NCBI GenBank assembly: GCA_016177405.1
Contig: JACOVG010000024.1
Location: 71,079 to 135,078 of the forward strand
DNA: 64,000 bases
Reading direction: 5' to 3'
Source: Candidatus Omnitrophota bacterium
GTDB lineage: Bacteria; Omnitrophota; Gorgyraeia; 1-14-0-20-64-10
Under the pieces are notes generated by a model, which saw nothing but the letters and a program-made list of their open reading frames with translations, did not search any database and was not told the DNA's origin. Made by a program: the position numbers and the translations under genes. Positions 1,571-47,412 of the stretch are shown here, in pieces. Each line of letters begins with the position of its first letter. The first letter of the stretch is position 1.

Positions 1571-3312
1571 CCCACACCTTTGACGCGGTGATCGTGGGCG
1601 CCGGCGGCGCCGGGCTCATGGCGGCCCTGCAGGCAACCAGGGGACAGTCCCCTGCGGGGACAGTCCCCAAGGTCGCCGTGCTCTCCAAGCTTTACCCCAC
1701 CCGCTCCCACACCGGGACGGCCCAGGGCGGGATCGGAGCGGCCCTGGGCAATTCGGAAGAGGACCGCTGGGAGTGGCACATGTTCGACACGGTCAAGGGC
1801 GGCGACTATCTGGGCGACCAGGACGCCATTGAGATCATGTGCCGGGAGGCGGTGGACACCGTCTACGAGCTGGAGCACATGGGGCTGCCCTTCTCCCGCA
1901 CGCCGGATGGGAAGATCGCCCAGCGGCCTTTCGGCGGGCACACCCGGGAATTCGGCAAGGCGGCGGTGCGCCGCGCCTGCTACGCGGCCGACCGGACCGG
2001 CCACATGATCCTGCAGACCCTGTACCAGCAGTGCATCAAGCAGGGGGTCACCTTCTTCGACGAGTTTCATGTGGTGGACCTGCTGTTGGACGGCGGGGCC
2101 GTCCGCGGGGTGGCGGCGGTGGAGATCGCCACCGGTGATCTCCACACCTTCGCCGCCAAGGCGGTTCTGTTCGCCACCGGCGGCTGCGGCCGGATGTTCA
2201 AGATCACCTCCAACGCCTTGACCCTGACCGGCGACGGGATGGGGGTCGTTTACCGGCGGGGGATCCCCCTGCAGGACATGGAGTTCTTCCAGTTTCACCC
2301 GACCGGCATCTACAAGATGGGGATCCTGATCACCGAGGGGGCGCGCGGGGAGGGGGGCATTCTGCGGAACAATTCCGGCGAGCGCTTCATGGAGCGCTAC
2401 GCCCCCAACCTGAAGGATCTGGCCCCCCGGGACATGGTCTCGCGGGCCATGCACACGGAGATCCGGCAGGGCCGGGGAATCGGCGGCAAGGATTACCTTC
2501 ACCTGGATCTGACCCACCTCGACCCCCAGGTGATCCACGACAAGCTTCCGGACATCACCGATTTTGTCGAGACGTATCTGGGGATCGACCCGGTTAAGGC
2601 CCCGATTCCGGTTCAGCCCACCGCCCATTACGCGATGGGGGGCATCCCCACCAACGCCGACGGCGAGGTGGTGATCGACGAGCGCCGGACGCCCCTGCCG
2701 GGCCTTTACGCCGCTGGGGAATGCGCCTGCGTCTCGGTGCACGGGGGCAACCGCCTGGGGACCAACTCCCTGGTGGACATCATCGTTTTCGGGCGGCGGA
2801 GCGGCAAGGCCCTGGGCGAATATGTGAAGCGCTCGGCGCCGGCGGGGCTGCCGGCAGACCCGGAGGGCCAGACGCGCGAGAGGCTGAAAAGGCTGCGCGA
2901 GGGCCGGGGCCCGGAGAGGGTCTCCTCTATCCGGGAAGCGCTTCAGGCCGAGATGACGGACAAGGCCTCGGTCTTCCGGACCGCCGGCGAGCTTCAAAAG
3001 ATGCTGGAGGTCCTGACCGGGCTTAAGGCGAGGTATGAAAAGGCAGCGCTCCAAGACCGGGGGAGCCGCTTCAACATGGAGCTCCTGGAGGCCTTTGAGC
3101 TGGGGTGCCTGCTGGATTTGGCTCAAGTTACCGTGACCTGCGCTTTGAACCGTCAGGAATCGCGCGGGGCCCATTGCCGCGAGGACTTCCCCAAGCGGGA
3201 CGACGCCAACTGGTTCAAGCACACGCTCGCCTGGAAGCGGGGAGACCGGGTGGAGATCGGGTACAAGCCGGTGGTGGTGACCCGGTTCCAGCCCCAGGAG
3301 CGGAAATACTAA
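1567..3312 (+). CDS. sdhA: succinate dehydrogenase flavoprotein subunit SdhA
   Basis: MTHTFDAVIVGAGGAGLMAAL FAD-binding N-terminus, HTGTAQGG covalent-FAD His region, and HGGNRLGTNSL. The true start is an internal ATG of the listed ORF (1378..3312). Confidence 0.9.
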   Translation: MTHTFDAVIVGAGGAGLMAALQATRGQSPAGTVPKVAVLSKLYPTRSHTGTAQGGIGAALGNSEEDRWEWHMFDTVKGGDYLGDQDAIEIMCREAVDTVYELEHMGLPFSRTPDGKIAQRPFGGHTREFGKAAVRRACYAADRTGHMILQTLYQQCIKQGVTFFDEFHVVDLLLDGGAVRGVAAVEIATGDLHTFAAKAVLFATGGCGRMFKITSNALTLTGDGMGVVYRRGIPLQDMEFFQFHPTGIYKMGILITEGARGEGGILRNNSGERFMERYAPNLKDLAPRDMVSRAMHTEIRQGRGIGGKDYLHLDLTHLDPQVIHDKLPDITDFVETYLGIDPVKAPIPVQPTAHYAMGGIPTNADGEVVIDERRTPLPGLYAAGECACVSVHGGNRLGTNSLVDIIVFGRRSGKALGEYVKRSAPAGLPADPEGQTRERLKRLREGRGPERVSSIREALQAEMTDKASVFRTAGELQKMLEVLTGLKARYEKAALQDRGSRFNMELLEAFELGCLLDLAQVTVTCALNRQESRGAHCREDFPKRDDANWFKHTLAWKRGDRVEIGYKPVVVTRFQPQERKY

Positions 3313-3538
3313 GAGCACGTTTCAAAACCGTCATCGCGAGCCCCCGCCCCTGGCGGGGGCGTGGCGATCTCGTCTTAAAAGCGAGATTGCTTCGGCCTAA
3401 AGGCCTCGCAATGACGAGTTATCTAAGGAGTCATCCCCGCCCTCGCTTACGCGAGGGTAAACTACAGCGGGGATCCCTGTCATTCCCCCGAAAGGGGGAA
3501 TCAGATCCTCACTTTCGTGAGGATGACTTAAGGGTGCA
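3313..3538. repeat. cluster of 4-5 REP-like palindromic hairpin elements in the sdhA-sdhB intergenic space
   Basis: Consecutive perfect hairpins: gcccccgcc-cct-ggcgggggc; gagattgc...ggcc-taaa-ggcc...gcaatgac; gtcatccccgc[cctcgc-ttac-gcgagg]...gcggggatc; attccccc-gaaa-gggggaat; gatcctcac-tttc-gtgaggatgac. The same modules recur at 12672, 55097 and 4543. Confidence 0.65.
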
Positions 3539-6701: not shown

Positions 6702-9005
6702 ATGAAAAGTCTCCTTTGGGGTCTAACCCTCATGGCCTTCTCAAGCTCTTCCGTGAGTTCTGGAACTTCCGAATTCTTAAGCAGCGTTCTTCGGCCCATG
6801 GTGGAGAAGAAGATCGAGACTGGTCTCGAAGAGGCCTTGGGCGGCGAGCCAGACAACCCCTCCTCCGAATGGAGGGGAACGCGGCGCCGATTTCTTAACG
6901 AGGCAGCCCGACGCTTTGCAGGCGTCACAGCGGCGGGCTTAATGACTCTGAAAGGAGGGGTCCAGGCCGAATCGGTTCCCCTCCCCTCTGCGCCACCGCC
7001 CTCTCCCAAACCGGCCCCGCCGGCCGAAGCCAGCGCCGCCGAGTGGCAAGAGCGGTACGCCGGGCTTTTCGACGTCTGGGGCGACCTGTACGACGCGGCC
7101 GACCAGTTCCTGGACGCCGTCCAGTTGAGGCGCTACGGCCTTGTCCTCTTGGACAAGACCAAGGACCTGGAGGATTGGGAGGCCCTCCTGGCCGGCGCGG
7201 TCGCCAGCTACAAGGAAAAGATCCGGTGGACCGTCTTGGCCAGGCCAGCGTTTTCGCCGGAGTTTCGAGCCCGCTTCGTCCGGCTGATCCGACGGCTTGA
7301 AGAGGAGGCGCGCCCGCAGGTGGTGGATGAGCGGTTTTTGCCTGGCAAGATGCGGGAGATCCTCCGGTCGGAAAAGATGCGGCAGTGGGCCTGGTCCCAG
7401 GGGCAGGCGGCCGGGAAGCCGTGGGATGCCTATTGGGCGAGCGAGCCCGGCTTTTGCGCCCTCTTCCTGGGTTCGAGCGGCGAGGTCCTGGAAACCAAAG
7501 AGGATCTGCTGGCTTTCCTGGACGACGTCTTAAAGGAAAACGACAAGGCCATTCTTTCCGCCGCTCTTTCAGACTGGGAGATCCACTTCAGGGCGGTTCA
7601 GATGAGGTCGGAGAAGGAGGGGCGGCCCACCCCTGGCTATGTCAGGGCTCTTCTGGAGGATGAGCCGAGGCGCCGGCGGTTTGTCCTTGCCCTCTTCGAG
7701 ATCTTTTACGACCTGGGTCATAACTCAAGCGAGGTCTTCCAGCTCAATACCCTGCGGACGGCCCGACACCTTCGGACGCGGCTGGCAAGCCCCAGCTATC
7801 TTCCCGCTGAAGAAAAGATTACCCTCTTTACGACCCCGCCGGAGGCCCTGCAGGTTGTTTTGGGAAGACTGCCCGTTCTCTGCGAGATGGTGAGCAGGGG
7901 GATCGTCTCAGGCCAGGAGGCCTCCAGGCGGCTTGGGCCCCTCTTGCGGCATCCCGTGGCGGCGGCCCAGGAGCTGGAGGAGCCCCTTTCAGCTCTTTTG
8001 GATTGGGCCGCGAGCCGAAGAGAGGCAACGGCCGATGTCAGGAAGGCCCTGGAGACGCTTGCCGCGCGCCTGAAACCGAGGGGCTTCCATGTGGAGCCCC
8101 TTTTCGTCACCGATCCCGGCTTCCTCTACCCCAGGGTCCCCAGCGCGGTCTGGTCGGGGCTGATCACCAGGATCGTTTATGAGGGGATGCTGGACAATCG
8201 GAAAATCCTGGTGGTGCACAACCTCTATGGCTATAACCCTTATGTCCTGGTGGGAGGTTATTCCTTCTCCGCCCGGAGGCAAGCGGTGATTTTTCTCCAT
8301 CGCTACATTACCGTCAACCGCGCCTTTCAAGAAGGACTGGGGGGTGAGCGGATCCCTTACCGGATCTCGACGCGCGTGGGGGACGCCTCCACCACAAGAA
8401 GGTTTCGCGATTGGGAGACGAGCATCCTGCGGCAGGCGGTGGGAGAAAACCCGGAGCTTCTGGATGAGAAGAAACGCCTTTGGGCCGTCGCGCTGGATGC
8501 CCTTCTTCACGAATGGGTTCATGCCTGGGGAGCAGGCGGCGGCGAATACCTTCCCTACGCGGTCGTGATGGGTTTTGGGCGGGCGCCTCTTTTGTATCTG
8601 GCCGAGATCGCGCCAGGGCATCTGCTGCCGGACAGGGGAGAGCGAGAAAGAAGCGCCAAGGAAGGTGCCGGCGGAATCTGGAAGGCTCTGGGAGCCGATC
8701 CTGCCCAGCCGCCCCTGGAGCAGATCCTGGCCACCCGCCCCACAGAGGCCCAGCTCCGAAGGCGTTTTTCGGAGCAGCTTGGCATTGATGATCCGGTTCT
8801 CATGCAGCGCCTGGTTGCACTGCGGGAAGAGTGGGAGGCCCTTTATCGCGCGCTGCTGAAGCAGGAGTTTAAGGTGCCCCCTCCGGAGGCAGCCGCGCCC
8901 TCGTCGGAGACAGTCCCGGCTGCCCAGGGCGGGCTGGAGGAGGCCTCCGAAAAGGGGTTGGAAGAAAGGATCCGAAGGGCGCCCGAGCTGGAACAAGGGG
9001 TTTGA
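6702..9005 (+). CDS. secreted hypothetical protein with a Tat-type signal (RRRFLNEAARRF...VQA) and an HExxH motif (LHEWVHAWG); carries GLEE motifs near both termini
   Basis: Long ORF preceded by an AT-rich promoter region. Twin-arginine motif at aa 61-66 followed by an h-region and an AxA site. The true start may be the internal ATG at 6798. Single HEWVH near aa 590. A Pro-rich linker follows the signal. Confidence 0.55.
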   Translation: MKSLLWGLTLMAFSSSSVSSGTSEFLSSVLRPMVEKKIETGLEEALGGEPDNPSSEWRGTRRRFLNEAARRFAGVTAAGLMTLKGGVQAESVPLPSAPPPSPKPAPPAEASAAEWQERYAGLFDVWGDLYDAADQFLDAVQLRRYGLVLLDKTKDLEDWEALLAGAVASYKEKIRWTVLARPAFSPEFRARFVRLIRRLEEEARPQVVDERFLPGKMREILRSEKMRQWAWSQGQAAGKPWDAYWASEPGFCALFLGSSGEVLETKEDLLAFLDDVLKENDKAILSAALSDWEIHFRAVQMRSEKEGRPTPGYVRALLEDEPRRRRFVLALFEIFYDLGHNSSEVFQLNTLRTARHLRTRLASPSYLPAEEKITLFTTPPEALQVVLGRLPVLCEMVSRGIVSGQEASRRLGPLLRHPVAAAQELEEPLSALLDWAASRREATADVRKALETLAARLKPRGFHVEPLFVTDPGFLYPRVPSAVWSGLITRIVYEGMLDNRKILVVHNLYGYNPYVLVGGYSFSARRQAVIFLHRYITVNRAFQEGLGGERIPYRISTRVGDASTTRRFRDWETSILRQAVGENPELLDEKKRLWAVALDALLHEWVHAWGAGGGEYLPYAVVMGFGRAPLLYLAEIAPGHLLPDRGERERSAKEGAGGIWKALGADPAQPPLEQILATRPTEAQLRRRFSEQLGIDDPVLMQRLVALREEWEALYRALLKQEFKVPPPEAAAPSSETVPAAQGGLEEASEKGLEERIRRAPELEQGV

Positions 9006-18704: not shown

Positions 18705-21700
18705 ATGAAAAAACTACGATCGCTCATCTCGCTTGCCTTGGCGCTCCAGCTTGCCCTGCCAAACCCTGCCGGAGTTTACCCAGAGCTTAGTCGAAGGGCC
18801 CTGCGCGTTAACCAGCTAAGAGAAGACCCCGCCGGAAAGACCCTTGCCGGTTTGGAAGAAGCCCTTCAGGGGAAGATGTTTTCAACCCCGGTGCCTGGCA
18901 CCAAGATGGCTGAAGGGGCCCGGAGGCAGATGAGCCAGTTCTTCCTGGCGCTGGGAACCTTCCTGCTCCTGTGCGCCGGAGGCAGGGGCGAAGAAGCGGT
19001 TTCGCCCCCGCTTATATCTTCAGCCGGCCCGGTATCCCCTCCATCCGATTCCAGCCAGAGAGCGCGCGGCCTGCTTTCCATCGGTCGAGGGACCTACGAA
19101 GGCGTTCTGAAGTCGCCAGCCAGAAGCTGGGCGGTTGGGGAGTTTGCCGAGAGTTATGAAGAATACGAGAGGATGCTGGCCAAGTTTCCCGACCTCCCGC
19201 CCATGGTCGAAGAGGCCTTGGATTACCTGAAGGAGAACCACCCTGGGATTTATGAGCGGTACGTCTTGCCCGGGATCTCTCGAATCATCCTGGTGGAAGG
19301 GGACATCCTAACCGCTCAAGCGCTGGGAGAGGGGAATGTTCTTCTCGCGGATGCCACCGTGCGGCACCTTCACGCCATGCCCCGCCAGGATCGTCCTCGC
19401 GTTCTCGCGGGAATCTTGGCTCATGAGGCGGTCCACAATACCCATCGCCAAAGAGGGCGTTTCCCCTCCACGAAGGACGAAGAGCCGGCGGACAGCGCTC
19501 TCGCCATGGAAGAGCTCACCGCCTACCTGATTCAGGCAGCCATTCCATTTGCCGAAACCCAACGTCCTGGAGCGATTCAGCCCATGGGGTATCTCATTTT
19601 TCAGGAGGATCTCTTTGGCCTGCGGCATGTTTCCGACGGACATTGGCTTGGGCTTTTCTCCGGGTTGGTGATCGGCCAAGGCGGTCTTTTCTTTCCGGAC
19701 GAGCTGGGCAGGCCCCCGAAGGTCCTCTGGCCGCTGGCCTCTCGGAGGATTCAAGCGCTTGCAAAGATCGAGCGGATGGAGCGGCAGAGGTTTGGAGAGG
19801 AGACGGCCGTTGAATTCCTGATATTCCACAAGGGAGAGGAAGATCCGAGGGCGGTCTATGTGGAGTATCGAATCCGGGAGGTGATCTATCGGCGGAAGGT
19901 TGACGTCAGAAGAGGCGGGAGGACATCGGTTGGGAAACCTGCAGTCGTTTCAAGGGACGCGTCGGTCTTTCATCGGGAGGTTCAAGAGCCATATGAGACA
20001 AAAGGGGGACCTGCCGCGGACCCCAAGGTCCTTAGGGATCTCAAGGCCTTCTTATTGGAGGTTGCCCAGCAGTTGTCAAATGAGCCAAGGACGCCGGCCG
20101 ATCAACGCCTCCTTGAGGTCATCCGTGAGATTCAAAAAAGATTAGAACCCCCCCCGGCGCCGCCCAAGCCCACGGTGCCTGGCAGAAAAGGGCTAGAAAC
20201 CCCCACCGGGCTGGGCAGGGCGGAGACGCAGCCGCCGAACCAGCCGCGGACGTTCTGGGCGGCCCGCGGCAACGGTAAAGTTCCCTTCACCCCAACGGCC
20301 CTCACTCGTAAATCAACTCCTCCGGTGTCTGGCCCCACCGCTGGGCTGGAGGAGGGGACCTCGCTTAAGAGGCGGATGGAGATTGCCAAAGGTCATGGCG
20401 CTCTCTACATCTCATTGATCGATATCTTCTTAAGACCAGGAGATTTGGAGGAGAAAAACCAGAGGGTCGAGCAGCAGATTCGAGACCTCCCCCCCGGATT
20501 TCCGAAAAGCATGAAGGAAGGTTACCTTGAAGGATATCGGAGATTTCTAGGAGGACTTGCAGCTAACCATGCTCTTCTTGAGGATTTTAGACAAGAAGGA
20601 GTCCGCGGACTTCTTTCGCGTCTGGCCTTGAGTTTAGAGGAAGATCCAGCAAGACCTTCGATGAGGATAAAGGCTGTTCGAGGAGTGTTAGAACGGAGTT
20701 TGAGCAGGGAAATGAATGATGCGGATTATCTTCTCACCACGTTCATCGTCTCATCTGGCCTTGAGAAGAAAAAGGATATGAATGAGATCGAACTTGATCT
20801 GCAAAAAGTCTTAGCTCACCCGGTTCGTCAAGGGTCCACACGCCTTTTAGAACCGACGCGGGGTGTTCTCATCGTTGAGGTCCAGGAAGAACTCATTCGT
20901 TTGATGCAAAATCGTGGGCTGCTGCTTTGGGCAGGGGCAGCGTTTTACGTTCCAAGTGAAAGCAATCATTTACCCAATTTTATTATAGTGCCAGACAATT
21001 CTCAGCTTTGGAAAAAGGCCCTGGCAAACGAGAGATACCTTACGGATGACCCTGATGTTCGCCATGAATTTCATCACCTCGTTTGGGATCTCCTCATGCG
21101 CAGCGGGTTCTTAAGAGAAACAAAGGAATCATCGGTGGGCAGGAGTAAAGCCTTTGATGGTTTTAGAGACGAGGTTAGCGCCTATATCGTTGCTGCCAAT
21201 AAACATTTCGCGGGAGTAGAACCAAAGTTACTGAATTATCTGGAGGGGACAGGTGACCTATCCGCAGACGCTCGGAAGGCGACCCGCGATGCGAGGGATT
21301 TTTCCGCCGCCGCTATGGAGATAGCCGAACAGCTAGGCATTCCCCGTTCCGCCTTTCTCTATGCTTCCATGACAGCGAGAAATTTCTCCGAGTTAAAAAG
21401 ACTTTTTGCGGAGTTAACTCCCTTACGCAAGTTGGAAGACCTTGAGGCCTGCGGCTTGCTCTATGCCGCATGGGAGAAATTGAGATATGAAGCGGATGTA
21501 AGCAAATCCATCGGAGATCTGCTTCGGGAGAAAGGGTTACGCGTCGACCCGGCCCTCGCACAAGCGTTTGCCATCCATCACCTCCGATCAGACGAAAAGT
21601 CCTTCCAGCGGTTGGGCGAGCTGGATGAAGAGTTGGGAAGAATTGAGAAGGTCTTTGCGGCATTTGGGTCGAGGCTTCCATCTCGGGAGGGCGTCTTGGA

Positions 21701-24700
21701 AGCCGTCTTTGAAACCCGGCTCCCTCTGCCTCTTGAAACGCGCCAAACCATCCGGACGTTCTCGTTGGGCGAACGGACTGGAATCCCGCTGGGTTTGAAA
21801 CCAGAGGATTTCTTAACGTCCCTCGTCTCCTTCCTTCTCATCGATGATCCCGCCACAGGGAACAGGTTCAGAATATACCAAGCCATCGTTCGCTCTTCAC
21901 CTGTTATGCTGGCGGCCTTCCGAAAGGTTCAGGACGAGATTATTCGTAAGGGGAGTCAGGCTTACCGGATCGAGATGAAGGGGAGGGGGGCATTGGAGGC
22001 CGAGATCAAAACGATATCGGACTGGATAAAACGCTTAGGTGAACCGCCGCCAGCGTTGGACACCCCAGCGCCAGCCACCCCCGCCGGGCTGGAGAAGGTG
22101 GTGAGGGGAAATTTGGCCATGCTAAGGCAGGCGTACCCTCTTATGGAGAGTGCCGTTGTTCCTGAACCATTTGTGAGGGGAGAAAAGAACAGACCCCATC
22201 TCTATTTCGCCCTGAATGGGGCGGGGAAGATCCTCGAAATTAGACAAGATTGGGTGAGTACGGAAGATCGTGCGGCAAAATGGGTTCTGGGGCTTGCCTT
22301 ACGCTGGCCCGCCAAGGGGCCATTTCAACTCAGTACGGCTAAAAGAGATGTTGAAATTATAACGGGTCCAAGCGGCGCTGGCTACTCGAAATTGCCGAAG
22401 CTTTTTCTAGATTCAATAAAGTTGTTTAATCGGGTCCCCTATCCGTTCGCCGCCCTGACACGTTTTTCTCCCGATGAAGCCCAAAAGGAACTGGGCCAGT
22501 TCAAAGGACTGGGGAAGCTGCAGGCGGCGGAAACGTGGGTGGGACATGGCGGCACCAATAGGCGTGAAAAGATCTCGTTGGTGGATCCCCCAGGAAACCT
22601 CTGGTTTATCCATCTTAAGGACGTGATGGTTGAAAAGACGACGCGGGAAGAAAGATTTCTAGAGGGTTCTCTCTTCGTCAGGCAAAGGCAAATCTCTTTG
22701 GGTGAACTTCAGAAACTCATTGCTTCCTCTTCGCTTATCCAGAGGTTTCCCCGATCCCCCGCCGGGCTGGAGGAGGGATGGCTAAAGCGTGCTTTGAAGC
22801 GGTTTGGCTTTGTTTCAGGAAAACCGGTTCTTGAAGACAAGAAAGCGCAAGAAGGCCCACGGGCTGTTGCTGCCAGAGACCTCATTGCTAGGGGTGAGAA
22901 GCCAGAAGGCATCACCGAGGTGGTTGGTTACTTGGAGAGTGTTTTAGAAGAGGAACGGCGGAACGCCCAAATGGCTCTTACCCAGATTGCTGACGATAAG
23001 CAAAATAGCGATCCCGCCAAGGTGAACTTCCTTCGAGCCATGAACAACGCCCAGGTAGTCCAGAAGAGCGTTCCCAATCTCTTTAGGCCGGGCGTTTACC
23101 GTGCAGCTTACGATACCCTTAGAGAACTTGTCTCCTATGGAGAGTTCAATGAGGCATTCATTTCAGTGATTCCCATTTTGGCGGAGAAGCTCTCGTCTTC
23201 AGATGGGGACGTTCGCCTGCCCAGCCTAGCAGTCCTGAATTACCTTGCTGGGTTCGAGAAGTTCGCTGAGGCCATTAAGAAAGCCCGGGTACTGGAAAAG
23301 TGCCTCGCCAACCCCAACCTCTTACGCGATACGGCCAATCTCTACAGGAGACATGATGTTGAGCCGAGTATCTATCTTCTTTTCCTGAATGTGCCTGCCT
23401 ACCTTGGAACATTCAACTCCCGAGTTATCCCTCTACTGGCTGCCGGTTATTCGGATTCGGATCCATTAATCCGCAACGAGGCCAGCAGGGTTCTCCTTCG
23501 GCTTGCCCACTACCTGGAATTGTGGACAGCATACGTCACTCGAGTTATCCCCGCCATCCTGGGCAACCTTATGAATCCAGATGAATCCATCCGCGATTCG
23601 GCCAGGAGCGATCTCCTCGCTTTGGATAGCACACGCCCTTATTATCCGTTCCCCGAGGATGCCGACCTCGACGGACTTCATCAAGCAATCGTCTCCCGCA
23701 TTCCGCCTCCAGTCTTAACGGCCTACCGGCAGGCATGGTTTGATGGCAAGACGCTCAAGGCTTTGGATAATCCATTTAGGTCTGATGCGGTGAATGCGCT
23801 TAGCCAAGATATTTTTAAGAGAGACGCTGGATCGAAGGAGGAACGCCTGCTGCTTCAACTTCTTGGAGAGTTCTCTCCGGAGAAGGCCGCCGAGATCAAG
23901 AGTGTCTTGGAAAAAAGATCACGGGCACCTGGAACCGGCTTGCCAGGTGCCGCCGGGCTGGAGGAGGTGGCCGAAGAACTCAAGGGGCAGACGCTAAAGC
24001 TGCTCAACGACGTGTTTGGCGGCTCTGAAATCAAGCAGGTGACAAGGGAAGCGCTCGGGCGCCTCCAGGAAAGATTCGACAGGGCCCCAAGCGAGGAGAA
24101 GCGCGGCATCCTCGGAAGATTCTGGGAGATCTACCTGCCGTCCCTCCGCAAGCTTGCTCGACAGCGCATCCAAGAGACAGCCGCCACCGCCAGGCCCCTG
24201 CCCCCAGGCCATGTGGAGCCCTCCGTGGTCATCGTTGGACCGGCCGTGAACCTGAACCTCAACATTGGCTGGATGCCGGACCCGGAGGATTCCCAGCGGC
24301 TCGTCGTAGATCCAGGCGCGACCAGTTTGAAGGCCAACGGATCCCCAACGAACGTCATGGAGACCTTGCTGTTTCTGGGGACTCCCTTCCGGTCAATCGG
24401 CATGCGCGGAGCCGATGGGGCGCCGGTTCACCAAATATTCTTTGAGCTCCTCGGGGCCGTAGGGATTGACCCCCAGGAATGGCCCCGTGTCTCCGGGGAT
24501 GTTGATTTCGTCCCCACGATGTCCGCTGGCACGCTGGGGCTTGATTATCGCTTCATCCCGCCTCTCCCTCCCTGGAAGAATGCCGAGTTGTCGAATTACA
24601 CCGGCGCGGTGTCTCGGGTCACTGAAGAGCTCGCCACAGGGGGAAGACCGCACGGGGCCTTGGCGGTGACCAGCCGCGTTCCGGCCAACGCCCCCTCAGA

Positions 24701-27700
24701 CTTTCTCTCGCAGCTCTTTCGGATCGGGAAGAAGGGAGGCCTGTTCGTGGTCTATGATCCCAAGACGAACACCCTGGAGAATCCGGAGATCCGCAGCGCC
24801 ATCGTGGCTGAAGGACCCCACCTCATCACGCCGAACCTGGAAGAGTTCTCTGTGCTGGTCGGCCTTCCTCTCGAAGAGCTTCAGACTCCGGAGCAGATCA
24901 TCGTTGCAGCCCATCGGCTGATCGGACGGCCGAAAACCGATATCCCAATGATCCTAATTTCGCTCGGAGACAGGGGGGCTCTGCTGATCGACAAGGAGCG
25001 TGCAGCCTACGCCAACGTGCCGCCGGTTTCCGTCGTCGGCCCGGGAGGGGCAGGGGACGCCGGTCTGGCCGGTTTGTTGCGCCAATACGCCCAGACGGAG
25101 GCGTCCCAGAGGCCATTCTCCACCCTAAGGGACTCGGAGTTCCTGTCCCTGCTGCGCGCCTACGTCGCCGCTGGGGCCGCGGCGGTCCTGATGCCTGGCG
25201 ATGAGTCTCCCTTCCTGGAGGGTGTCGTTCAAATGGAGCAGCAGGTCCGAACGACGTTCTTCCGGGGAGAGCTTCCTTCAGAACATCTGGCCGGGCTTTT
25301 TACCCCAGTGGAACGCCCTACTGCCCAAAGCCCCTATCAGAACCGGGTGTGGGTACCGCGGCTGGGGCGTTTTTTCTTCGCGGATGAGGAGGTCATCTCT
25401 CCGGACAATGCCGGTTCCGACCTCTACCTGAATTTCATCCTCTCCAACCCGAGTCTCTTTAGGGATAAGACGGTTCTGGAGCCCTTCACCGGTTCCGGTG
25501 TGCTGGCGTACGCCTTGGCGTCGGTTGGGGCCACGGTGGTGGCGACGGATGTCTCTGAATCGGCGATTCGCCTCGCTGAAAGGAACCGCCAGGATTGGCC
25601 GCCGGAAATCCGGGGCCGGGTGACGTTCGGGATCAGCGATGTCTATGGCAATCTGTGGAGAATCACCGCTCTACGTGAATTCGATGTGATGATTGGCAAC
25701 AATCCCACCCAGAGGCAGGATCCTCTGCCTGGGGATGGGGCCTCCTACATGACAAGTGCCGGCGAGCATTTTGAAGTCATCCGGGAGGCCATCACCGGGC
25801 TCGCTGTCCTGCTTAAGCCTGGCGGCAGCGCCTATTTGCAGACCCGTGTTGTTCAGGAGCAGGAGGAACCTCTGCGCCGGCTGACAGCCGAACACCTCAA
25901 GGAGAAACTCCTTCCAGAGGGGTGGGATCTTGAGCCGACCAGCTACGAGGGGATGGGCAGGACCGAGTTGATTCCGCTTGTGATTAACCGCATCTTCCGC
26001 ACCCCCGCCGGGTTGGAAGAGGAGGAGGCGGGTGGACGGGTGAGGGGATGGGCTTTGTCGCTGATTGGCCGCCTGTTTCAATTCCCGAGTCGGCTTGTGA
26101 CAGAGCGGAAACTCATGAAGATCCTGAAAAATCCCAACGATAACCCGTACGAACGACGTTTGGATGCCTTGGAAGTCGTTTCTATCACAGGGGACAAGAG
26201 GTTGCGCGCCAAGTGGGATTCTTCTCCTGGCTGGGATTTGAGTTATCGGGAAGCGGTAATAAAGCACTTGGCCAGGATGGGAAGCAAGAAGCTCGTGCCC
26301 CTGCTTAGGGAAATCCTTCAGGATCCAAAGACAGAAACTGCGGCTGGCGTGGTGGCAGCAAGGGAGATGATCGATTTGGGGGCCACGGACGTGGCGGTTG
26401 CGTACCTTGGTCAGGCGGTGGGGAAAGAAGAAATCCCCCCGCAGAGTCATGAGGATGTTATCAAGGCGTTATGGAAAGAAGAAATCTCGCCGCTGGATTA
26501 TGAGAATGTTATCAGGGCGCTGGGGAAAGCTGGGGGAACCGCGGCGGTGGGGTACCTTGGCAAGGTGGCGGAGAAACTGTGGCTGGGCGATGGCTCGCCC
26601 AGCTACTGGGCGCTTGAGGCACTGGGAAGGATCGGCAGCCAAGAGGCCTTGGACCGCTTAAGGGGATTTGCATCGCACCACAAGGTACAGCTCCTTCGAT
26701 TCATGGCGCAAACTGTGCTGACGGAAATTGAAAATCCGAAGAGGGCGATTCCCTCTCTGAAACAACTGATGTTGGATTCAAGGGTTCCCAATGAATTTAA
26801 GGCCACCGTTCTGGAAAGGATTGCGGAAGGCGGCTCCCCCGACGGGATTGCCTTCGTGGGAGAAATGGCCAGGGATTTGAAGATCACCTCTTTGCGGGAT
26901 AAGGCGGTTGAAGGCCTGGTCAAGAATGGCAGCCCCCAGGCGGTTGGAGAGCTCGCGGAGGTATTGAGGGTTGAGGATGGGATCTCCTCTTTCTGGGCCA
27001 GCACCCTGGAGGGCCTTGCGACGATAAAAACGCCCGAAGCGGTAGCTCTTTTAGGCAGACTGGCAACGGATAAGGGAATGCTGGTTCTTTCCAGGAGTAA
27101 AGTGATTGACCTCTTGCTCAAGGTGGAGAGCCGGCACGCCATACCGCATTTGGCTAAGTTGGCGCAGGAGGAGGGAGAGAACGTCCTCCTGCATGGTGAC
27201 AAGCAAGCTGCCGCTCTAAGACTCATAGAGATCGGCGGCGATGAGGCGCTTCCATACCTTAAGCAAATTGCCAGGAATGGCTGGTCTTGGACTTTGGCCA
27301 TACAGGGGCTTGGAGAAATGGGCGGCGTGGAGGGGCTTGATTTCCTGGCCAGGTTAGCCGTCGATAAAGAGGTTGACCCCAAGAGAAAGGAACGGGCCCT
27401 TTTTCAACTTGCCGATGTGAGCTCTCCCGAAGCGCTCGATTGGTTGAGAAGGGTAGCCATGGATCCTGATCAAGATCCCACCCTGCAAGCTGCGGCGATG
27501 TCGGCCTTGATGCGCGTAATTCCGAGGTCTCTTCCTTATCTGCTCGGTGGGTTGCTGGTTGCGGATGACGAAGGGATTCCATTGGCCATGTTACGGCGGT
27601 TCTCAAAGAAAGATATCCTGGCGGCGGTCAGCCGTGGTTCTCCCGGGCCAGAGAAACTTCTTTGGCTGCCCCCTGTCGGCAGCAAGGTGCCTGTGGCGCT

Positions 27701-28964
27701 GAGGAAAGAAGCGGGGGGGATGAAAAGCGACAATCTCGGCGTCTTCGGAACACACCTCACCGCTGAGGGACAGTTGAGGAGGATGAAGGACATTGTAAAC
27801 GTACTCGGGGCACAAAACATACACCAGATGACGGTACAGGGCCGCCTGACAGACCCCTTTAAATATGTGGCTGCCCTCCTCATTCTTGCAACCCCCACGC
27901 AGTTCATGAACCTGGAGGCAATAGGCACAGGCACCGATAGCTGGAAAACGTGGCTTCAGATTGGGCCTCTTGTCCACGACGGGCTTCAAGCCAACAAGCC
28001 GATCAACCCTCTGTGGGGTAACGAGGGCCGCACCGATTTTCTCCTTCTCATGACGCCAGAGGAGGTCCAATTGGCAGAGGGCTACCCGATCAAGCTTAAG
28101 GCCTATCAGCGATTGGCGTTGGCGCTTCACGCGGCCCAGGGGACGGTTCCAAGCCAAATGCCCAAACAGCTTCGGGAGAGGCTGGCCGATGTCTGGCGAG
28201 AATTTGTGCAAGAAGCGGATAAGCTGCTTGTGGAAAGTTACGCGAAGCCGGCGGTGGAGCTTCCATGGTTTTCAGAAGGCGCGGACTCCAAGGGACATCC
28301 TTTGAGCGCCTACGGTAAGCGGCAAGAGGCGGACTGGGGTCCCATCCAGCAGGCCTTCCTTCGCGCCAGAGAGAAGATTCTGGATGGGGCCCAGACGGAT
28401 GAAGAGAAAATGGCGGTACTCTACGGGGTTGTCGGGCCATCTTTGGGACTCCTGGCGAGATTCTCGAAGAGGGTAGACCAGGTCCTGGGGGTCTCTATGC
28501 CCCAGCCGGCCGTTCCACCGTCCCCCGCAGGGTTGGAGGAGGCGCGGGAGGCGGCGGCGAGGGAGCGGTTGGATGGGATGAGGTCGGCGGCGCTGACCTT
28601 GGACTGGGTGGTGATTGGAAAGAGAGTTGCGGGACAGTTTCCCGGGCTTGAGCAGTTGGCTGGGCTGGAGGAACGGATTTTAATCGATGGGGATGATCCA
28701 GCAGAGACGGCCTTTAAACTGATTCAGCGGGGCGCCGCTTGGGGCGATCGGGTGACCTTCTTTGGCGGCTTGGAAGAAGGGGAGAAGCTTACCTTTGTGG
28801 CCAGAGATGCCGGGCTTACGTTTCAGATCGTTGGTCTTAAGGAGCAGGGTTTTTCCATTCAGCTTCGGCAGATCTTGGCGGGTCTTGGGATTCCGGACGC
28901 GGCGATTGCGGCTGGTCTCGAGGAGATGGCCGCCGACCTGACCTTCCTAGGCCAAGCGGCTTGA
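18705..28964 (+). CDS. giant (3419 aa) secreted multidomain protein. Contains a signal peptide, a HEAVH motif, a second HEFHH motif, a PfkB/ribokinase-like kinase domain, a class-I SAM-methyltransferase-like domain and PBS-lyase HEAT repeats. Punctuated by nine (P/A)AGLEE motifs
   Basis: Single uninterrupted 10,260-nt ORF with no competing frames. N-terminal MKKLRSLISLALALQLALP signal. HEAVH at nt 19422-19436. PfkB motifs LITPNLEEF...VVGPGGAGDAGLAGLL (~24650-25100). MTase motif I LEPFTGSGVLAYA, ATDVSE and IGNNPTQ (~25460-25760). Repeated ALGxxGxxxAVxxL HEAT units (26100-27500). AGLEE motifs at nt 18846, 20337, 22080, 22758, 23949, 26004, 28524, 28663 and 28906. Confidence 0.75.
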   Translation: MKKLRSLISLALALQLALPNPAGVYPELSRRALRVNQLREDPAGKTLAGLEEALQGKMFSTPVPGTKMAEGARRQMSQFFLALGTFLLLCAGGRGEEAVSPPLISSAGPVSPPSDSSQRARGLLSIGRGTYEGVLKSPARSWAVGEFAESYEEYERMLAKFPDLPPMVEEALDYLKENHPGIYERYVLPGISRIILVEGDILTAQALGEGNVLLADATVRHLHAMPRQDRPRVLAGILAHEAVHNTHRQRGRFPSTKDEEPADSALAMEELTAYLIQAAIPFAETQRPGAIQPMGYLIFQEDLFGLRHVSDGHWLGLFSGLVIGQGGLFFPDELGRPPKVLWPLASRRIQALAKIERMERQRFGEETAVEFLIFHKGEEDPRAVYVEYRIREVIYRRKVDVRRGGRTSVGKPAVVSRDASVFHREVQEPYETKGGPAADPKVLRDLKAFLLEVAQQLSNEPRTPADQRLLEVIREIQKRLEPPPAPPKPTVPGRKGLETPTGLGRAETQPPNQPRTFWAARGNGKVPFTPTALTRKSTPPVSGPTAGLEEGTSLKRRMEIAKGHGALYISLIDIFLRPGDLEEKNQRVEQQIRDLPPGFPKSMKEGYLEGYRRFLGGLAANHALLEDFRQEGVRGLLSRLALSLEEDPARPSMRIKAVRGVLERSLSREMNDADYLLTTFIVSSGLEKKKDMNEIELDLQKVLAHPVRQGSTRLLEPTRGVLIVEVQEELIRLMQNRGLLLWAGAAFYVPSESNHLPNFIIVPDNSQLWKKALANERYLTDDPDVRHEFHHLVWDLLMRSGFLRETKESSVGRSKAFDGFRDEVSAYIVAANKHFAGVEPKLLNYLEGTGDLSADARKATRDARDFSAAAMEIAEQLGIPRSAFLYASMTARNFSELKRLFAELTPLRKLEDLEACGLLYAAWEKLRYEADVSKSIGDLLREKGLRVDPALAQAFAIHHLRSDEKSFQRLGELDEELGRIEKVFAAFGSRLPSREGVLEAVFETRLPLPLETRQTIRTFSLGERTGIPLGLKPEDFLTSLVSFLLIDDPATGNRFRIYQAIVRSSPVMLAAFRKVQDEIIRKGSQAYRIEMKGRGALEAEIKTISDWIKRLGEPPPALDTPAPATPAGLEKVVRGNLAMLRQAYPLMESAVVPEPFVRGEKNRPHLYFALNGAGKILEIRQDWVSTEDRAAKWVLGLALRWPAKGPFQLSTAKRDVEIITGPSGAGYSKLPKLFLDSIKLFNRVPYPFAALTRFSPDEAQKELGQFKGLGKLQAAETWVGHGGTNRREKISLVDPPGNLWFIHLKDVMVEKTTREERFLEGSLFVRQRQISLGELQKLIASSSLIQRFPRSPAGLEEGWLKRALKRFGFVSGKPVLEDKKAQEGPRAVAARDLIARGEKPEGITEVVGYLESVLEEERRNAQMALTQIADDKQNSDPAKVNFLRAMNNAQVVQKSVPNLFRPGVYRAAYDTLRELVSYGEFNEAFISVIPILAEKLSSSDGDVRLPSLAVLNYLAGFEKFAEAIKKARVLEKCLANPNLLRDTANLYRRHDVEPSIYLLFLNVPAYLGTFNSRVIPLLAAGYSDSDPLIRNEASRVLLRLAHYLELWTAYVTRVIPAILGNLMNPDESIRDSARSDLLALDSTRPYYPFPEDADLDGLHQAIVSRIPPPVLTAYRQAWFDGKTLKALDNPFRSDAVNALSQDIFKRDAGSKEERLLLQLLGEFSPEKAAEIKSVLEKRSRAPGTGLPGAAGLEEVAEELKGQTLKLLNDVFGGSEIKQVTREALGRLQERFDRAPSEEKRGILGRFWEIYLPSLRKLARQRIQETAATARPLPPGHVEPSVVIVGPAVNLNLNIGWMPDPEDSQRLVVDPGATSLKANGSPTNVMETLLFLGTPFRSIGMRGADGAPVHQIFFELLGAVGIDPQEWPRVSGDVDFVPTMSAGTLGLDYRFIPPLPPWKNAELSNYTGAVSRVTEELATGGRPHGALAVTSRVPANAPSDFLSQLFRIGKKGGLFVVYDPKTNTLENPEIRSAIVAEGPHLITPNLEEFSVLVGLPLEELQTPEQIIVAAHRLIGRPKTDIPMILISLGDRGALLIDKERAAYANVPPVSVVGPGGAGDAGLAGLLRQYAQTEASQRPFSTLRDSEFLSLLRAYVAAGAAAVLMPGDESPFLEGVVQMEQQVRTTFFRGELPSEHLAGLFTPVERPTAQSPYQNRVWVPRLGRFFFADEEVISPDNAGSDLYLNFILSNPSLFRDKTVLEPFTGSGVLAYALASVGATVVATDVSESAIRLAERNRQDWPPEIRGRVTFGISDVYGNLWRITALREFDVMIGNNPTQRQDPLPGDGASYMTSAGEHFEVIREAITGLAVLLKPGGSAYLQTRVVQEQEEPLRRLTAEHLKEKLLPEGWDLEPTSYEGMGRTELIPLVINRIFRTPAGLEEEEAGGRVRGWALSLIGRLFQFPSRLVTERKLMKILKNPNDNPYERRLDALEVVSITGDKRLRAKWDSSPGWDLSYREAVIKHLARMGSKKLVPLLREILQDPKTETAAGVVAAREMIDLGATDVAVAYLGQAVGKEEIPPQSHEDVIKALWKEEISPLDYENVIRALGKAGGTAAVGYLGKVAEKLWLGDGSPSYWALEALGRIGSQEALDRLRGFASHHKVQLLRFMAQTVLTEIENPKRAIPSLKQLMLDSRVPNEFKATVLERIAEGGSPDGIAFVGEMARDLKITSLRDKAVEGLVKNGSPQAVGELAEVLRVEDGISSFWASTLEGLATIKTPEAVALLGRLATDKGMLVLSRSKVIDLLLKVESRHAIPHLAKLAQEEGENVLLHGDKQAAALRLIEIGGDEALPYLKQIARNGWSWTLAIQGLGEMGGVEGLDFLARLAVDKEVDPKRKERALFQLADVSSPEALDWLRRVAMDPDQDPTLQAAAMSALMRVIPRSLPYLLGGLLVADDEGIPLAMLRRFSKKDILAAVSRGSPGPEKLLWLPPVGSKVPVALRKEAGGMKSDNLGVFGTHLTAEGQLRRMKDIVNVLGAQNIHQMTVQGRLTDPFKYVAALLILATPTQFMNLEAIGTGTDSWKTWLQIGPLVHDGLQANKPINPLWGNEGRTDFLLLMTPEEVQLAEGYPIKLKAYQRLALALHAAQGTVPSQMPKQLRERLADVWREFVQEADKLLVESYAKPAVELPWFSEGADSKGHPLSAYGKRQEADWGPIQQAFLRAREKILDGAQTDEEKMAVLYGVVGPSLGLLARFSKRVDQVLGVSMPQPAVPPSPAGLEEAREAAARERLDGMRSAALTLDWVVIGKRVAGQFPGLEQLAGLEERILIDGDDPAETAFKLIQRGAAWGDRVTFFGGLEEGEKLTFVARDAGLTFQIVGLKEQGFSIQLRQILAGLGIPDAAIAAGLEEMAADLTFLGQAA

Positions 28965-44878: not shown

Positions 44879-45554
44879 GCTGGTCTTTTCTGGGGAGATG
44901 AAGGAAGGGGTCTACCGGGCGATCTACGGCCGCAGGGACATCCGTTCGCAGTTTATGCCGGAGCCCATCCCGGACGAGGTGCTCCTGCGGATTCTCCGCG
45001 CGGCCCATCACGCCCCTTCCGTCGGGTTCATGCAGCCCTGGAACTTTATTGTGATCGAGGACGCGGCGGCCCGTAGGGAGGTCAAGGAGTCCTTCGAGAA
45101 GGCCCACGCCGCCGCGAAGCAGCTCTTCCCGGAGCCCAAGCGCGCGGTCTACGGCTCCTTCAAACTGGAGGGGATCCTGGAGTCGCCTGTGAATGTCTGC
45201 GTTACGTGCGACCGGAGCCGGTTTGGCCCCGTGGTGATCGGCCGCACCTGCCAGCGTGAGATGGACCTCTACAGCGCGGTCTGCGCGGTGCAGAACCTGT
45301 GGCTGGCGGCGCGGGCGGAAGGGGTGGGCGTGGGCTGGGTCAGCATCGTCTATCCAAAGGACCTGAAGCGGATCCTGCGTCTCCCCTCCCAGGTGGTGCC
45401 CATCGCCTACCTGTGCCTCGGGTACGTGACGCATTTCCCGGAGGAGCCGGAGCTGCAGAAGGCGGGGTGGCTGCCGCGGCTGGCGCTTAAGGAGGTTGTC
45501 TTCACCGAACGCTGGGGTGACCGGACCGGCAGAATCTGCCAGGCGCTGGAGTGA
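44862..45554 (+). CDS. bluB: 5,6-dimethylbenzimidazole synthase BluB (nitroreductase family)
   Basis: VYRAIYGRRDIRSQFMPEPIPDEVLLRILRAAHHAPSVGFMQPWNF is very close to the BluB signature. Length 230 aa. Confidence 0.7.
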   Translation: MPGTDELVFSGEMKEGVYRAIYGRRDIRSQFMPEPIPDEVLLRILRAAHHAPSVGFMQPWNFIVIEDAAARREVKESFEKAHAAAKQLFPEPKRAVYGSFKLEGILESPVNVCVTCDRSRFGPVVIGRTCQREMDLYSAVCAVQNLWLAARAEGVGVGWVSIVYPKDLKRILRLPSQVVPIAYLCLGYVTHFPEEPELQKAGWLPRLALKEVVFTERWGDRTGRICQALE

Positions 45555-46477
45555 CGGTGGCGCCTCATCGGTTACAGGTATTTCTTATAGGGTGCGCTGC
45601 GCTCTTTTTTGCGTCGGGGTCTTACGCGCGGGAAGAACACAAACCGCTTCCGCCGCGCCCATTCTATTTCGTCCAAGATTCCAAGGGGCAGAACCACTCC
45701 TTTGGCCTTCGAGCGGCTGAAGATGGAAGGCTTACCTTAGAGGATGGATCCGGAAGATCCCTTGAGATGGTTCCTGACCCCAAGCGGCTTTTTGGAGCGG
45801 CCTTTTATCAGGATGAAAACAGTCTGGTGGCCATCGAAACGGACGGCACGGTTTTGTGGTATGGCGAGGAAAGCGGTATCTTTCAGCTAAAGAATAAGCG
45901 GTCCGTCGAATATCCGGCCAGCGTATTGAACGTCTTCTTCACTCGGGTTCCGGGTCTTGTTTATCTCCTTCTGGAGGATACCCAGGAGGCTGACCGGTTG
46001 AGGAACTCTCCCGAACAATCCTACGCGGATCGATATGGCCGGATTACCCTGCAGACTTCAGCCGAAGGCTGGCACGCGATTCCGGCGGAAGAGTTGACGC
46101 CGTCGTTTCTGACCGGCTGTTACACGATGGCTGGCAAGAAGGTGACTGTGAGCCTGCGAGAGGACGAGAGGATTGAGCTCTCCCTTCCGGAGCCCTTGGA
46201 TGAGCCGTTTAGATCCGGCCCTTACGATCCCCTGGCCGAGGCCATCTTTGTTTTTCCAAAAGAGGGAATCGTCTGTAAAACCCAAAAGGGCTGGTCATTG
46301 CATCGGATGGATGGCTCCCTGGTGAAGTGGTTCTCCGCAGAGGGGATAGAGGCTTTCTGGTGGGAAGAACCCACCGTAAAAGAGGGCAGTTTCTTTATCC
46401 ACTCTCGTACCGGGTACGGCGGCGGCACTTTCAAGCTGGATGCAGACTCCGGAACCCTTATCCGAACCGAGGATTAA
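45551..46477 (+). CDS. hypothetical secreted protein (signal peptide), on a low-GC island
   Basis: N-terminal hydrophobic signal ending ASGSYA. ~52% GC, against ~65% in the flanks. No recognisable motifs. Confidence 0.4.
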   Translation: MTVAPHRLQVFLIGCAALFFASGSYAREEHKPLPPRPFYFVQDSKGQNHSFGLRAAEDGRLTLEDGSGRSLEMVPDPKRLFGAAFYQDENSLVAIETDGTVLWYGEESGIFQLKNKRSVEYPASVLNVFFTRVPGLVYLLLEDTQEADRLRNSPEQSYADRYGRITLQTSAEGWHAIPAEELTPSFLTGCYTMAGKKVTVSLREDERIELSLPEPLDEPFRSGPYDPLAEAIFVFPKEGIVCKTQKGWSLHRMDGSLVKWFSAEGIEAFWWEEPTVKEGSFFIHSRTGYGGGTFKLDADSGTLIRTED

Positions 46478-46598
46478 CCTCTTGCCAGCGCGTAAAACCG
46501 TACCGTTTCCGGGAGTGCCGGGTTTCGAACTGCGGACCCGGCGCGTTTGGAACTGGTATCTAAATATATGAGGGGATTCCGAAATTATCGGAGGGAAA

Positions 46599-46775
46599 AT
46601 GAAGCCAAAGGGTGCGAAGAGTGTAGAAGCGCTTCATAAGGGGGCGATCAAGGCGCTTAAGAAAGCGGTGGAAAGAGCGCTGGCACAGCATAAATTGGCG
46701 GGGGTCCCTGCGGCCATTTGGCGGGACGGAAAGGTTGTTCTTTTATCCGGTCGTCGTTTGAAGAGGCCTCGTTGA
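46599..46775 (+). CDS. small hypothetical protein (58 aa, basic)
   Basis: Strong GGAGGG RBS 5 nt upstream of the ATG. Not in the ORF track because it is under 60 aa. Lies within the low-GC island. Confidence 0.25.
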   Translation: MKPKGAKSVEALHKGAIKALKKAVERALAQHKLAGVPAAIWRDGKVVLLSGRRLKRPR

Positions 46776-46846
46776 CGTGACGCGTAACCTGTCCCCTTGG
46801 TACCCGGTACCGTTAGCTCCCGTACTGTGGTGCTGAGGACCGCCGC

Positions 46847-47392: not shown

Positions 47393-47412
47393 ATGGTGTA
47401 CATGAGATTGCG

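Follow-up and report, generated by a model that had tools for sequence, protein, structure and literature searches.

An AGLEE-type peptide at the module junctions of a giant Omnitrophota protein, a candidate site of processing or module exchange

Omnitrophota are uncultured bacteria, mostly ultra-small and probably predatory or parasitic, and to our knowledge they encode the longest known proteins. Here we examine a short peptide, (P/A)-A-G-L-E-E, that recurs along a giant protein encoded on a 64,000-nucleotide (nt) stretch of one such genome (GCA_016177405.1, contig JACOVG010000024.1, positions 71,079 to 135,078 of the forward strand). This whole stretch is called the window below, and positions are counted from its first letter. 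The product is identical to NCBI MBI1953479.1, encoded on a 140-kb contig and annotated as ‘MAG: methyltransferase domain-containing protein [Candidatus Omnitrophica bacterium]’, and Pfam and NCBIfam scans recognise in it just a PfkB-type sugar kinase, an S-adenosylmethionine (SAM)-dependent methyltransferase and HEAT repeats.

18705 to 28964, plus strand: the giant open reading frame (ORF), a single ORF of 3419 amino acids (aa), MBI1953479.1

For the giant multi-enzyme proteins of Omnitrophota, cleavage into several products has been hypothesised, but the cut points are unknown, which also blocks structure prediction of the pieces (bioRxiv 10.1101/2023.11.21.568195; 10.64898/2026.06.07.730766). 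Our protein resembles these ‘multi-enzyme metabolic clusters’ (West-Roberts et al. 2023) in its phylum, by NCBI name, and in joining a sugar kinase, a methyltransferase and HEAT scaffolding in one ORF. It differs in length, since the surveys cover proteins of at least 10 kAA (thousand aa) and this one has 3419 aa; moreover, no junction motif is mentioned for them, and their candidate proteases are C39 and subtilisin rather than HExxH modules.

In the polyvalent proteins of phages and conjugative elements, HExxH (zincin) modules are the commonest domain and are proposed to free the other domains by autoproteolysis (Iyer et al. 2017, PMC5512222). Those proteins carry many unrelated enzymatic domains per chain, as does the giant, in which the PfkB kinase and the SAM methyltransferase stand with HEAT repeats and two HExxH modules; a relative that shares one of these modules (P0004, module 2 below) also has a Pfam ART-PolyVal domain. 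On the other hand, the neighbourhood of the giant gene is housekeeping, and its annotation shows no phage, conjugation or mobile-element genes and no orphan cassettes. A PHROGs search gave no match, the HExxH modules match no described metallopeptidase clade, and the accessible part of PMC5512222 describes no recurring junction peptide. The giant would work much as a polyvalent protein or polyprotein does, but since there is neither a mobile-element context nor a PolyVal-type domain in its Pfam scan, we stop short of classing it as a true polyvalent protein.

Polymorphic toxins carry ‘pre-toxin’ junction motifs, such as VENN in CdiA and DPxGL in Rhs proteins. For such short peptides a double role, in recombination and in processing, has been proposed (Zhang et al. 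2012, PMC3482391). As in the giant, a short conserved peptide stands at a boundary, with a variable module after it and a change of composition. The giant differs in having many junctions per protein and metabolic-type modules, and it has no toxin family by Pfam and NCBIfam and no immunity gene after its ORF. By analogy, its junction motif appears functionally closest to these pre-toxin motifs. MARTX toxins and viral polyproteins likewise string modules in one chain, where linkers with a recurring cleavage determinant are read by a protease of the same chain; in MARTX this is a cysteine protease domain activated by inositol hexakisphosphate. Cleavage has been demonstrated in those systems and is inferred for the giant, in which a Pfam scan found no MARTX-type cysteine protease domain. 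In the literature we found no description of AGLEE, PAGLEE, a ‘GLEE motif’ or D-x-A-M-T (the counterpart introduced below) as a junction or protein motif.

The motif and the module boundaries

We find that a small family of modular proteins from a high-GC Omnitrophota lineage has (P/A)-A-G-L-E-E as its conserved junction motif, and that the giant arose by head-to-tail fusion of once separate proteins, among them two HExxH modules, a PfkB kinase with a methyltransferase, and HEAT scaffolds. The copies are as follows.

18846 to 18860, plus strand: copy 1, AGLEE (aa 48-52), after an N-terminal signal-like hydrophobic segment; its GLEEALQG context is common with the ORF at 6702-9005
20340 to 20354, plus strand: copy 2, AGLEE (aa 546-550), linker-type, opening the HEFHH module; GC falls downstream
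22083 to 22097, plus strand: copy 3, AGLEK (aa 1127-1131), linker-type, preceded by a 17-aa Pro-rich low-confidence segment past the end of the standalone homologues
22761 to 22775, plus strand: copy 4, AGLEE (aa 1353-1357), linker-type, the sole exact 18-mer copy
23952 to 23966, plus strand: copy 5, AGLEE (aa 1750-1754), linker-type, where GC at third codon positions (GC3) climbs from 0.56 to 0.73; P0073 has this junction too, with another downstream module
26007 to 26021, plus strand: copy 6, AGLEE (aa 2435-2439), linker-type, past the methyltransferase; GC3 falls
28527 to 28541, plus strand: copy 7, AGLEE (aa 3275-3279), linker-type, ahead of the conserved C-terminal domain; a helix is predicted from the Pro of PAGLEE
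28641 to 28673, plus strand: PGLEQ (aa 3313-3317) and AGLEE (aa 3319-3323), within the C-terminal domain; the GLE(Q/E) position is kept in the L003 homologue
28764 to 28778, plus strand: GGLEE (aa 3354-3358), within the C-terminal domain, behind a predicted beta strand; the L003 homologue has it unchanged
28911 to 28925, plus strand: AGLEE (aa 3403-3407), within the C-terminal domain and 12 residues short of the protein's end; the L003 homologue has an unchanged GLEEMAA

There are nine GLEE, whose G stands at aa 49, 547, 1354, 1751, 2436, 3276, 3320, 3355 and 3404; eight of these are AGLEE and, with the AGLEK, AGLE[EK] occurs nine times in all, beside the single PGLEQ. A preliminary description of the sequence had reported nine such motifs far above chance, and both this and its list of positions are essentially right, except that 1128 is an AGLEK, 3321 should read 3320 and 3410 should read 3404, GGLEE at 3355 had been missed, and the last copy is followed by 12 residues, not by five. 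The protein is rich in the four residues concerned (A, G, L and E each make up 8-13%), so that a compositional artefact deserves consideration; yet composition predicts 0.23 GLEE and 0.023 AGLEE, and none of 20,000 residue shuffles reached the counts observed for either, the highest having four GLEE. In six frames the window holds 15 GLEE, nine of them in the giant and three in the ORF at 6702-9005, and only two fall in other plausible genes, one being the family-conserved ‘AGLEE’ of an ABC-ATPase. The shuffle test excludes chance as the origin, and we regard it as having practically no likelihood.

Similarity among copies extends to DNA, although less uniformly than the near-identical 18-mer reported for several of them: six positions match CCCGCCGGGCTGGAGGAG with at most two mismatches, but only the one at 22758 is exact, those at 22080 and 23949 having one mismatch and those at 20337, 26004 and 28524 two. 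Across the whole window 0.47 matches with up to three mismatches are expected by chance. When the contexts of the copies are aligned, only [P/A]-A-G-L-E-E is conserved and the flanks are not, so that the conservation beyond the hexapeptide that was to be looked for in such an alignment did not appear. Self-comparison of the giant by BLAST found no repeated domains, and internal domain repeats are thereby rejected as the source of the motif. Since neither flanks nor domains recur, the repeated unit is the motif itself.

Six copies (547, 1128, 1354, 1751, 2436 and 3276) are linker-type: they have sequence rich in Pro, Ala, Ser and Thr in front of them (20 residues may hold as many as 6 Pro) and helix-like sequence behind. 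Such a copy stands at the end of a Pro-rich flexible linker, predicted to be disordered, and in the first turn of the next module's first helix, at the place of the N-terminus of standalone homologues. Four others (3314, 3320, 3355 and 3404) fall within the C-terminal domain of ~120 aa.

20343 to 22085, plus strand: module 2 (aa 547-1127), an end-to-end match to a standalone family of ~520 aa; AlphaFold mean predicted local distance difference test score (pLDDT) 89.8

An exhaustive HMMER search with aa 546-1745 returned 80 relatives, nearly all of which cover only aa ~665-1110 and most of which are standalone proteins of ~510-530 aa. The named standalone homologues are from Patescibacteria and Microgenomates. 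In an alignment of giant aa 547-1127 with 27 standalone proteins of 499-558 aa (28 sequences), the standalone C-termini end at giant aa ~1110, where the giant continues with a 17-aa linker, EPPPALDTPAPATP, and then AGLEK; the standalone proteins begin upstream of the first conserved helix, most often 10-20 residues ahead of the aligned GLEE 547 but anywhere from a few to ~60. On this sequence comparison, the interval from AGLEE to AGLEK (547-1127) is one formerly independent protein, and because module 2 matches full-length standalone proteins end to end, the motif marks gene-fusion junctions. The family to which module 2 belongs (proteins P0002-P0080) is uncharacterised, and in Omnitrophota it is embedded in multi-module proteins.

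The AlphaFold model of module 2 (predicted template modelling score 0.87) agrees with this. Its last 17 residues (aa 1111-1127) lack secondary structure and have pLDDT ~55-58, and the first helix starts from the L of GLEE, with pLDDT <50 at the motif. The C-terminal region was modelled with pLDDT 69; there the Pro-rich stretch forms coil, and a helix begins with the Pro of PAGLEE. This moderately confident fold has no significant match in the PDB. The motif is part of the module that follows it, at that module's N-terminal edge. The recognisable domains are placed as follows.

24534 to 25250, plus strand: PfkB-family sugar kinase domain (aa ~1944-2182; Pfam, NCBIfam)
25371 to 25892, plus strand: SAM-dependent methyltransferase domain (aa ~2223-2396; Pfam, NCBIfam)
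26607 to 27470, plus strand: HEAT-repeat region with approximate bounds, from the best Pfam stretch (aa 2635) to an NblB-like match (aa 2922)
28602 to 28961, plus strand: conserved C-terminal alpha/beta domain (aa ~3300-3419), 34% identical to the C-terminus of the 848-aa L003/L004 protein

The proposal that the copies coincide with domain boundaries holds for the segment 547-1128, which corresponds to the standalone homologues, for copy 1751, ~190 aa before the detectable kinase domain, and for copy 2436, ~40 aa after the methyltransferase. It fails between kinase and methyltransferase, which share one interval, so that not every Pfam domain is set apart by a copy. Within the HEAT-repeat region, two tandem 51-nt copies, 80% identical, occupy window positions 26413-26514 and encode …KEEIPPQSHEDVIK / …KEEISPLDYENVIR.

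Relatives of the motif in and beyond the high-GC lineage

A search for AGLEE-punctuated proteins in relatives, one of the checks that had been proposed, found two. A word-indexed search with the full-length giant returned only itself, the C-terminal 156 aa gave one relative (P0081), and a profile built from 13 motif contexts yielded no relative among 115 scored candidates. Two scans of species-representative genomes, one with the whole protein and one with the C-terminal alignment, found no relative in a collection that lacks the source lineage; a metagenome scan returned, among the matches listed, the same 848-aa protein only; and the ~5 kb past the window's end hold no further motif-bearing protein.

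The first relative is this 848-aa JGI-metagenome protein (L003), present also in a second assembly (L004). It has a signal-like N-terminus, GGLEEE at 46, AAGVEE at 73, an unrelated body and PPAAGVEE at 725. Its C-terminal domain is 34% identical to giant aa 3294-3419, and its SGLEE, GGLEE, SGMEE and TGLEEMAA line up with giant copies. The codons are unlike those of the giant (gga ttg gaa gaa, ggc ttg gaa gaa, ggt gtg gag gag), with L replaced by V or M. Since the peptide is kept across genomes while the codons change and L, V and M are swapped, selection acts on the peptide. The second relative is P0073 (400 aa), likewise a metagenomic protein, from the SRR series to which the window's genome also belongs. 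It matches giant aa 1663-1746 with 44% identity, continues with KPSAGLEE and then enters an unrelated domain. Judged from this sequence comparison, it is one case of a conserved junction with a swapped downstream module.

The window itself encodes another protein of this kind.

6702 to 9005, plus strand: second motif-bearing ORF, 767 aa, with one GLEE behind a signal-like segment (nt 6822, aa 41), two at the C-terminus (nt 8931 and 8955), and HEWVH at aa 603

Three GLEE stand here against 0.06 expected. The N-terminal ~55 aa resemble the leader of the giant, with a hydrophobic segment and …GLEEALGG against …GLEEALQG; beyond this leader the two proteins have no significant homology. The exact 767-aa sequence is missing from the protein collection, so the annotators probably chose another start. 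It has no Pfam match, and a twin-arginine-like TRRRFLNEAARRFAGVTAAGLMTL follows its leader.

In low-GC Omnitrophota, multi-module proteins that share module 2 carry a different peptide at equivalent places. P0024 (3938 aa; MBF0522705.1, Candidatus Omnitrophica), encoded by a gene of 44% GC at L007 3001-14817 (GCA_015233405.1, JADFXT010000010.1), has eight D-x-A-M-[T/M] against 0.035 expected; P0004 has three DRLML, and P0021 has NQAML and DEAMI. In P0024 and P0021 the first helix of module 2 comes ~20 residues after the motif, just as it does after AGLEE 547, and in P0024 and P0004 the last copy directly precedes the protein's own conserved C-terminal domain, as giant copy 3276 does. From sequence, then, both lineages share an architecture of leader, n repeats of junction motif plus module, and a final junction motif plus C-terminal domain, while the motif is lineage-specific. 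P0004, P0021 and P0024 have a common N-terminal domain (…LSPYEKDRIIPE.FG.TEMGRDLL…), and the low-GC multi-module relatives a common C-terminal domain of ~70 aa (GGIDL…MNL…FHL.PA…GFVPVIINI.P); neither has a Pfam match, and the C-terminal domain of the high-GC lineage is a different one. A Peptidase_M48 gene lies ~2 kb downstream of the P0024 gene.

These comparisons bear on whether the peptide is a structural or docking element that is never cut, either a favoured helix start after a Pro linker or a short linear motif for a common partner such as the HEAT scaffold, an export chaperone or a secretion receptor. The AlphaFold helix begins at the motif in both models; the copies of the C-terminal domain come after beta strands and are kept in the homologue, like elements of beta-alpha loops; and three different proteins (the giant, the 767-aa ORF and L003) each have their first copy 41-49 aa into the chain, behind a signal-like segment, which would suit a tag related to export or to a partner. 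However, helix starts rarely need a fixed hexapeptide, and other helices of the giant begin without it. Any partner would be hypothetical, the models have only low to moderate confidence for the motif residues themselves (pLDDT <50 in module 2, ~69 in the C-terminal model), and the codon homogeneity and GC steps described below would stay unexplained. We therefore consider an uncleaved structural or docking role rather unlikely.

Sorting or anchoring tags (LPXTG, PEP-CTERM and similar) had also been offered as an alternative, which we reject: the ten copies checked are multiple and mostly internal, no hydrophobic or membrane segment follows any of them, and the NCBIfam scan of the giant matched no sorting-signal model (kinase, methyltransferase and HEAT-type models only).

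Codons and composition at the junctions

Between genomes it is the peptide that is conserved; within genes the DNA of the copies is homogenised as well. In the giant, its glycine codon is GGG in 6/6 linker-type copies, against 34% gene-wide (p=0.0016), and GGG-CTG-GAG occurs in 5/12 copies against 5% expected; in P0024 the motif codons are near-identical and GC-rich (‘gac cgc gcc atg a..’, with ATGA in every copy; p = 0.011, 0.005 and 0.002 for three codons). Several of these codon-level tests were picked after looking at the data. The three DRLML of P0004 use different codons, so within-gene sharing of codons is not universal.

Composition changes along the gene as well. GC3 is 0.66 in module 1, 0.54-0.56 in modules 2-4, 0.73 in module 5, 0.65 in module 6 and 0.67 in module 7, while eleven other genes of the window have 0.72-0.87. 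The shifts of GC and GC3 lie at 20343, 23955 and 26010, and the suggestion that motif copies sit near GC transitions is borne out by GC3 steps at three of them: 547 (0.66 to 0.54), 1751 (0.56 to 0.73) and 2436 (0.73 to 0.65). The giant gene is thus compositionally mosaic and atypical, which fits assembly from parts of differing origin or age joined at the motif.

These observations are what one would expect if the motif DNA were a recombination handle or fusion scar, where modules are joined and exchanged at a short conserved stretch. Its copies would be kept alike by gene conversion or shared descent, and the peptide would be merely a tolerable linker or helix start. Codons are shared beyond codon usage in the giant and in P0024, GC3 steps mark three copies in a neighbourhood that is otherwise at 0.72-0.87, P0073 joins the same upstream domain and motif to another module, and the motif differs by lineage yet holds an equivalent place. 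On the other side, the peptide is kept between genomes while codons change, as in L003, so that the peptide, too, is under selection; homologous recombination would have little to work with in 15-26 nt of imperfect homology; and neither orphan cassettes nor mobile-element genes were seen nearby. We regard a recombination handle as a real but less probable explanation, one that may coexist with a processing site rather than replace it. The preliminary description had likewise entertained recombination junctions for shuffling modules; codon homogeneity, the GC mosaic and the module swap of P0073 lend this support, although we rank it below a processing site.

Could the conserved nucleotides instead reflect translation? 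One possibility is internal starts, a ‘stopless operon’ in which the hydrophobic codon of the motif initiates, the conserved junction nucleotides are the initiation context, and modules are made both as one chain and separately. In the giant this codon is CTG or TTG in 9/10 copies, against 45% of Leu codons gene-wide (p=0.004); it is ATG in all low-GC relatives and, in L003, TTG four times, GTG twice and ATG once; and it is roughly aligned with the start Met of standalone homologues. Yet CTG, a very rare start codon, is the one used in 5/10 GLEE copies and in the AGLEK copy, with CTC in one. Upstream lie GC-rich Pro codons without a Shine-Dalgarno sequence at usable distance, GGAGG standing on or downstream of the codon, and single-base steps between Leu, Val and Met codons account for the NTG pattern just as well. 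With tests that were, again, picked after seeing the data, we judge internal starts improbable.

A Shine-Dalgarno-like pause site (CTGGAGGAG contains GGAGG), or a signal of RNA structure or processing at the boundaries, is less probable still, to the point that we give it hardly any weight. Six copies do contain GGAGG, but it occurs 43 times in the giant gene, is missing from four giant copies and from all but one L003 copy, and an upstream Shine-Dalgarno sequence is found in few genes of the window. The differing codons of L003 indicate that the motif is not a Shine-Dalgarno-like string, and we rejected the pause idea on codon variation and GGAGG frequency. RNA structure was rejected because 100-nt folds at the six linker-type copies have z-scores of only -0.8 to +0.9.

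As to the surroundings, the neighbouring genes are ordinary metabolic ones (glycerol kinase, glycerol-3-phosphate dehydrogenase, epimerase, alcohol dehydrogenase, Mrp/NUBPL ATPase), and the gene next after the giant is the epimerase, on the opposite strand. The window has a second lower-GC stretch at 45500-49000 (0.54-0.59), without a GLEE motif; it holds an ORF at 45551-46477 (no Pfam match), a MiaB-like radical-SAM gene at 47413-48804 and ~930 nt without any ORF of at least 200 aa. Over the whole 64 kb the cumulative GC skew climbs almost monotonically, long ORFs are mostly on the plus strand, and GGAGG occurs 307 times on the plus strand against 137 on the minus strand (2.2x). Just past the right end, at L005 4072-6441, lies the gene of a 789-aa protein with no Pfam hit on record, an LptD-type outer-membrane look and no GLEE.

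Processing as the favoured role of the junction motif

Based on these findings, we tentatively propose that the junction motif is a proteolytic processing site. We rank this reading first, although we would put its chances at somewhat below even, and it is compatible with the motif DNA also serving recombination. The most likely cut would be G↓L, with a small residue before a hydrophobic P1' residue, and the most likely protease would be the embedded HExxH (zincin-like) modules of the same chain, so that the modules would be set free once the chain had been made or exported. The copies, with their near-identical coding sequence, would probably also provide the short homology for module exchange.

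19422 to 19436, plus strand: first HExxH, HEAVH (aa 240-244), followed by AMEELTAY; putative zincin-like site of module 1
21063 to 21077, plus strand: second HExxH, HEFHH (aa 787-791), in module 2

Processing is placed first because HExxH modules sit in all these proteins: the giant has two (at aa 240 and 787), P0021 two, P0024 three and P0004 one. In module 2, moreover, the HExxH, a Glu at +32 and a Tyr are invariant in 28/28 aligned sequences (the giant's module 2 and 27 homologues), and the order of elements predicted by AlphaFold, with strands, then the HExxH helix, then the Glu helix, fits the zincin core as described in PMC5512222. Both junction motifs, in addition, present a small and then a hydrophobic residue (A-G|L/V/M in one lineage, x-A|M in the other). 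This pattern suits the hydrophobic S1' pocket typical of gluzincins. Finally, the literature on Omnitrophota expects giant proteins to be cleaved but names no sites. The earlier idea that the protein's own HExxH domain does the cutting thus gains two HExxH modules, one of them from a family with invariant HExxH, Glu and Tyr, and the evidence suggests that this uncharacterised family, which Patescibacteria also have, may act as the processing enzyme.

Several points weigh against processing. Cleavage is deduced from the sequence rather than from products or neo-N-termini. Pfam scans of all 28 module-2 sequences returned no peptidase family, a PDB sequence search with the HExxH modules gave no peptidase match, and fold searches with module 2, despite its confident model, found no significant match, zincins included. 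Three or four copies lie inside the folded C-terminal domain at conserved, structural-looking positions, where cuts would leave pieces of 35-50 aa, and the motif is predicted to be helical, not extended. A protease site does not require codon identity within a gene, which points instead to a process at the DNA level. The motif-bearing relatives found, finally, are two only, which limits the known breadth of the phenomenon.

What the locus offers is a junction peptide that recurs at genuine boundaries between modules, together with another Omnitrophota lineage that has its own peptide at the equivalent place. If the copies are indeed points of processing or recombination, the module map of such proteins would be readable from sequence, and the pieces could be modelled and expressed individually. 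A direct metaproteomic test would then also be possible through N-termini beginning with L-E-E or M-T. The motif is therefore a testable candidate for where giant proteins of this kind are cut or recombined.

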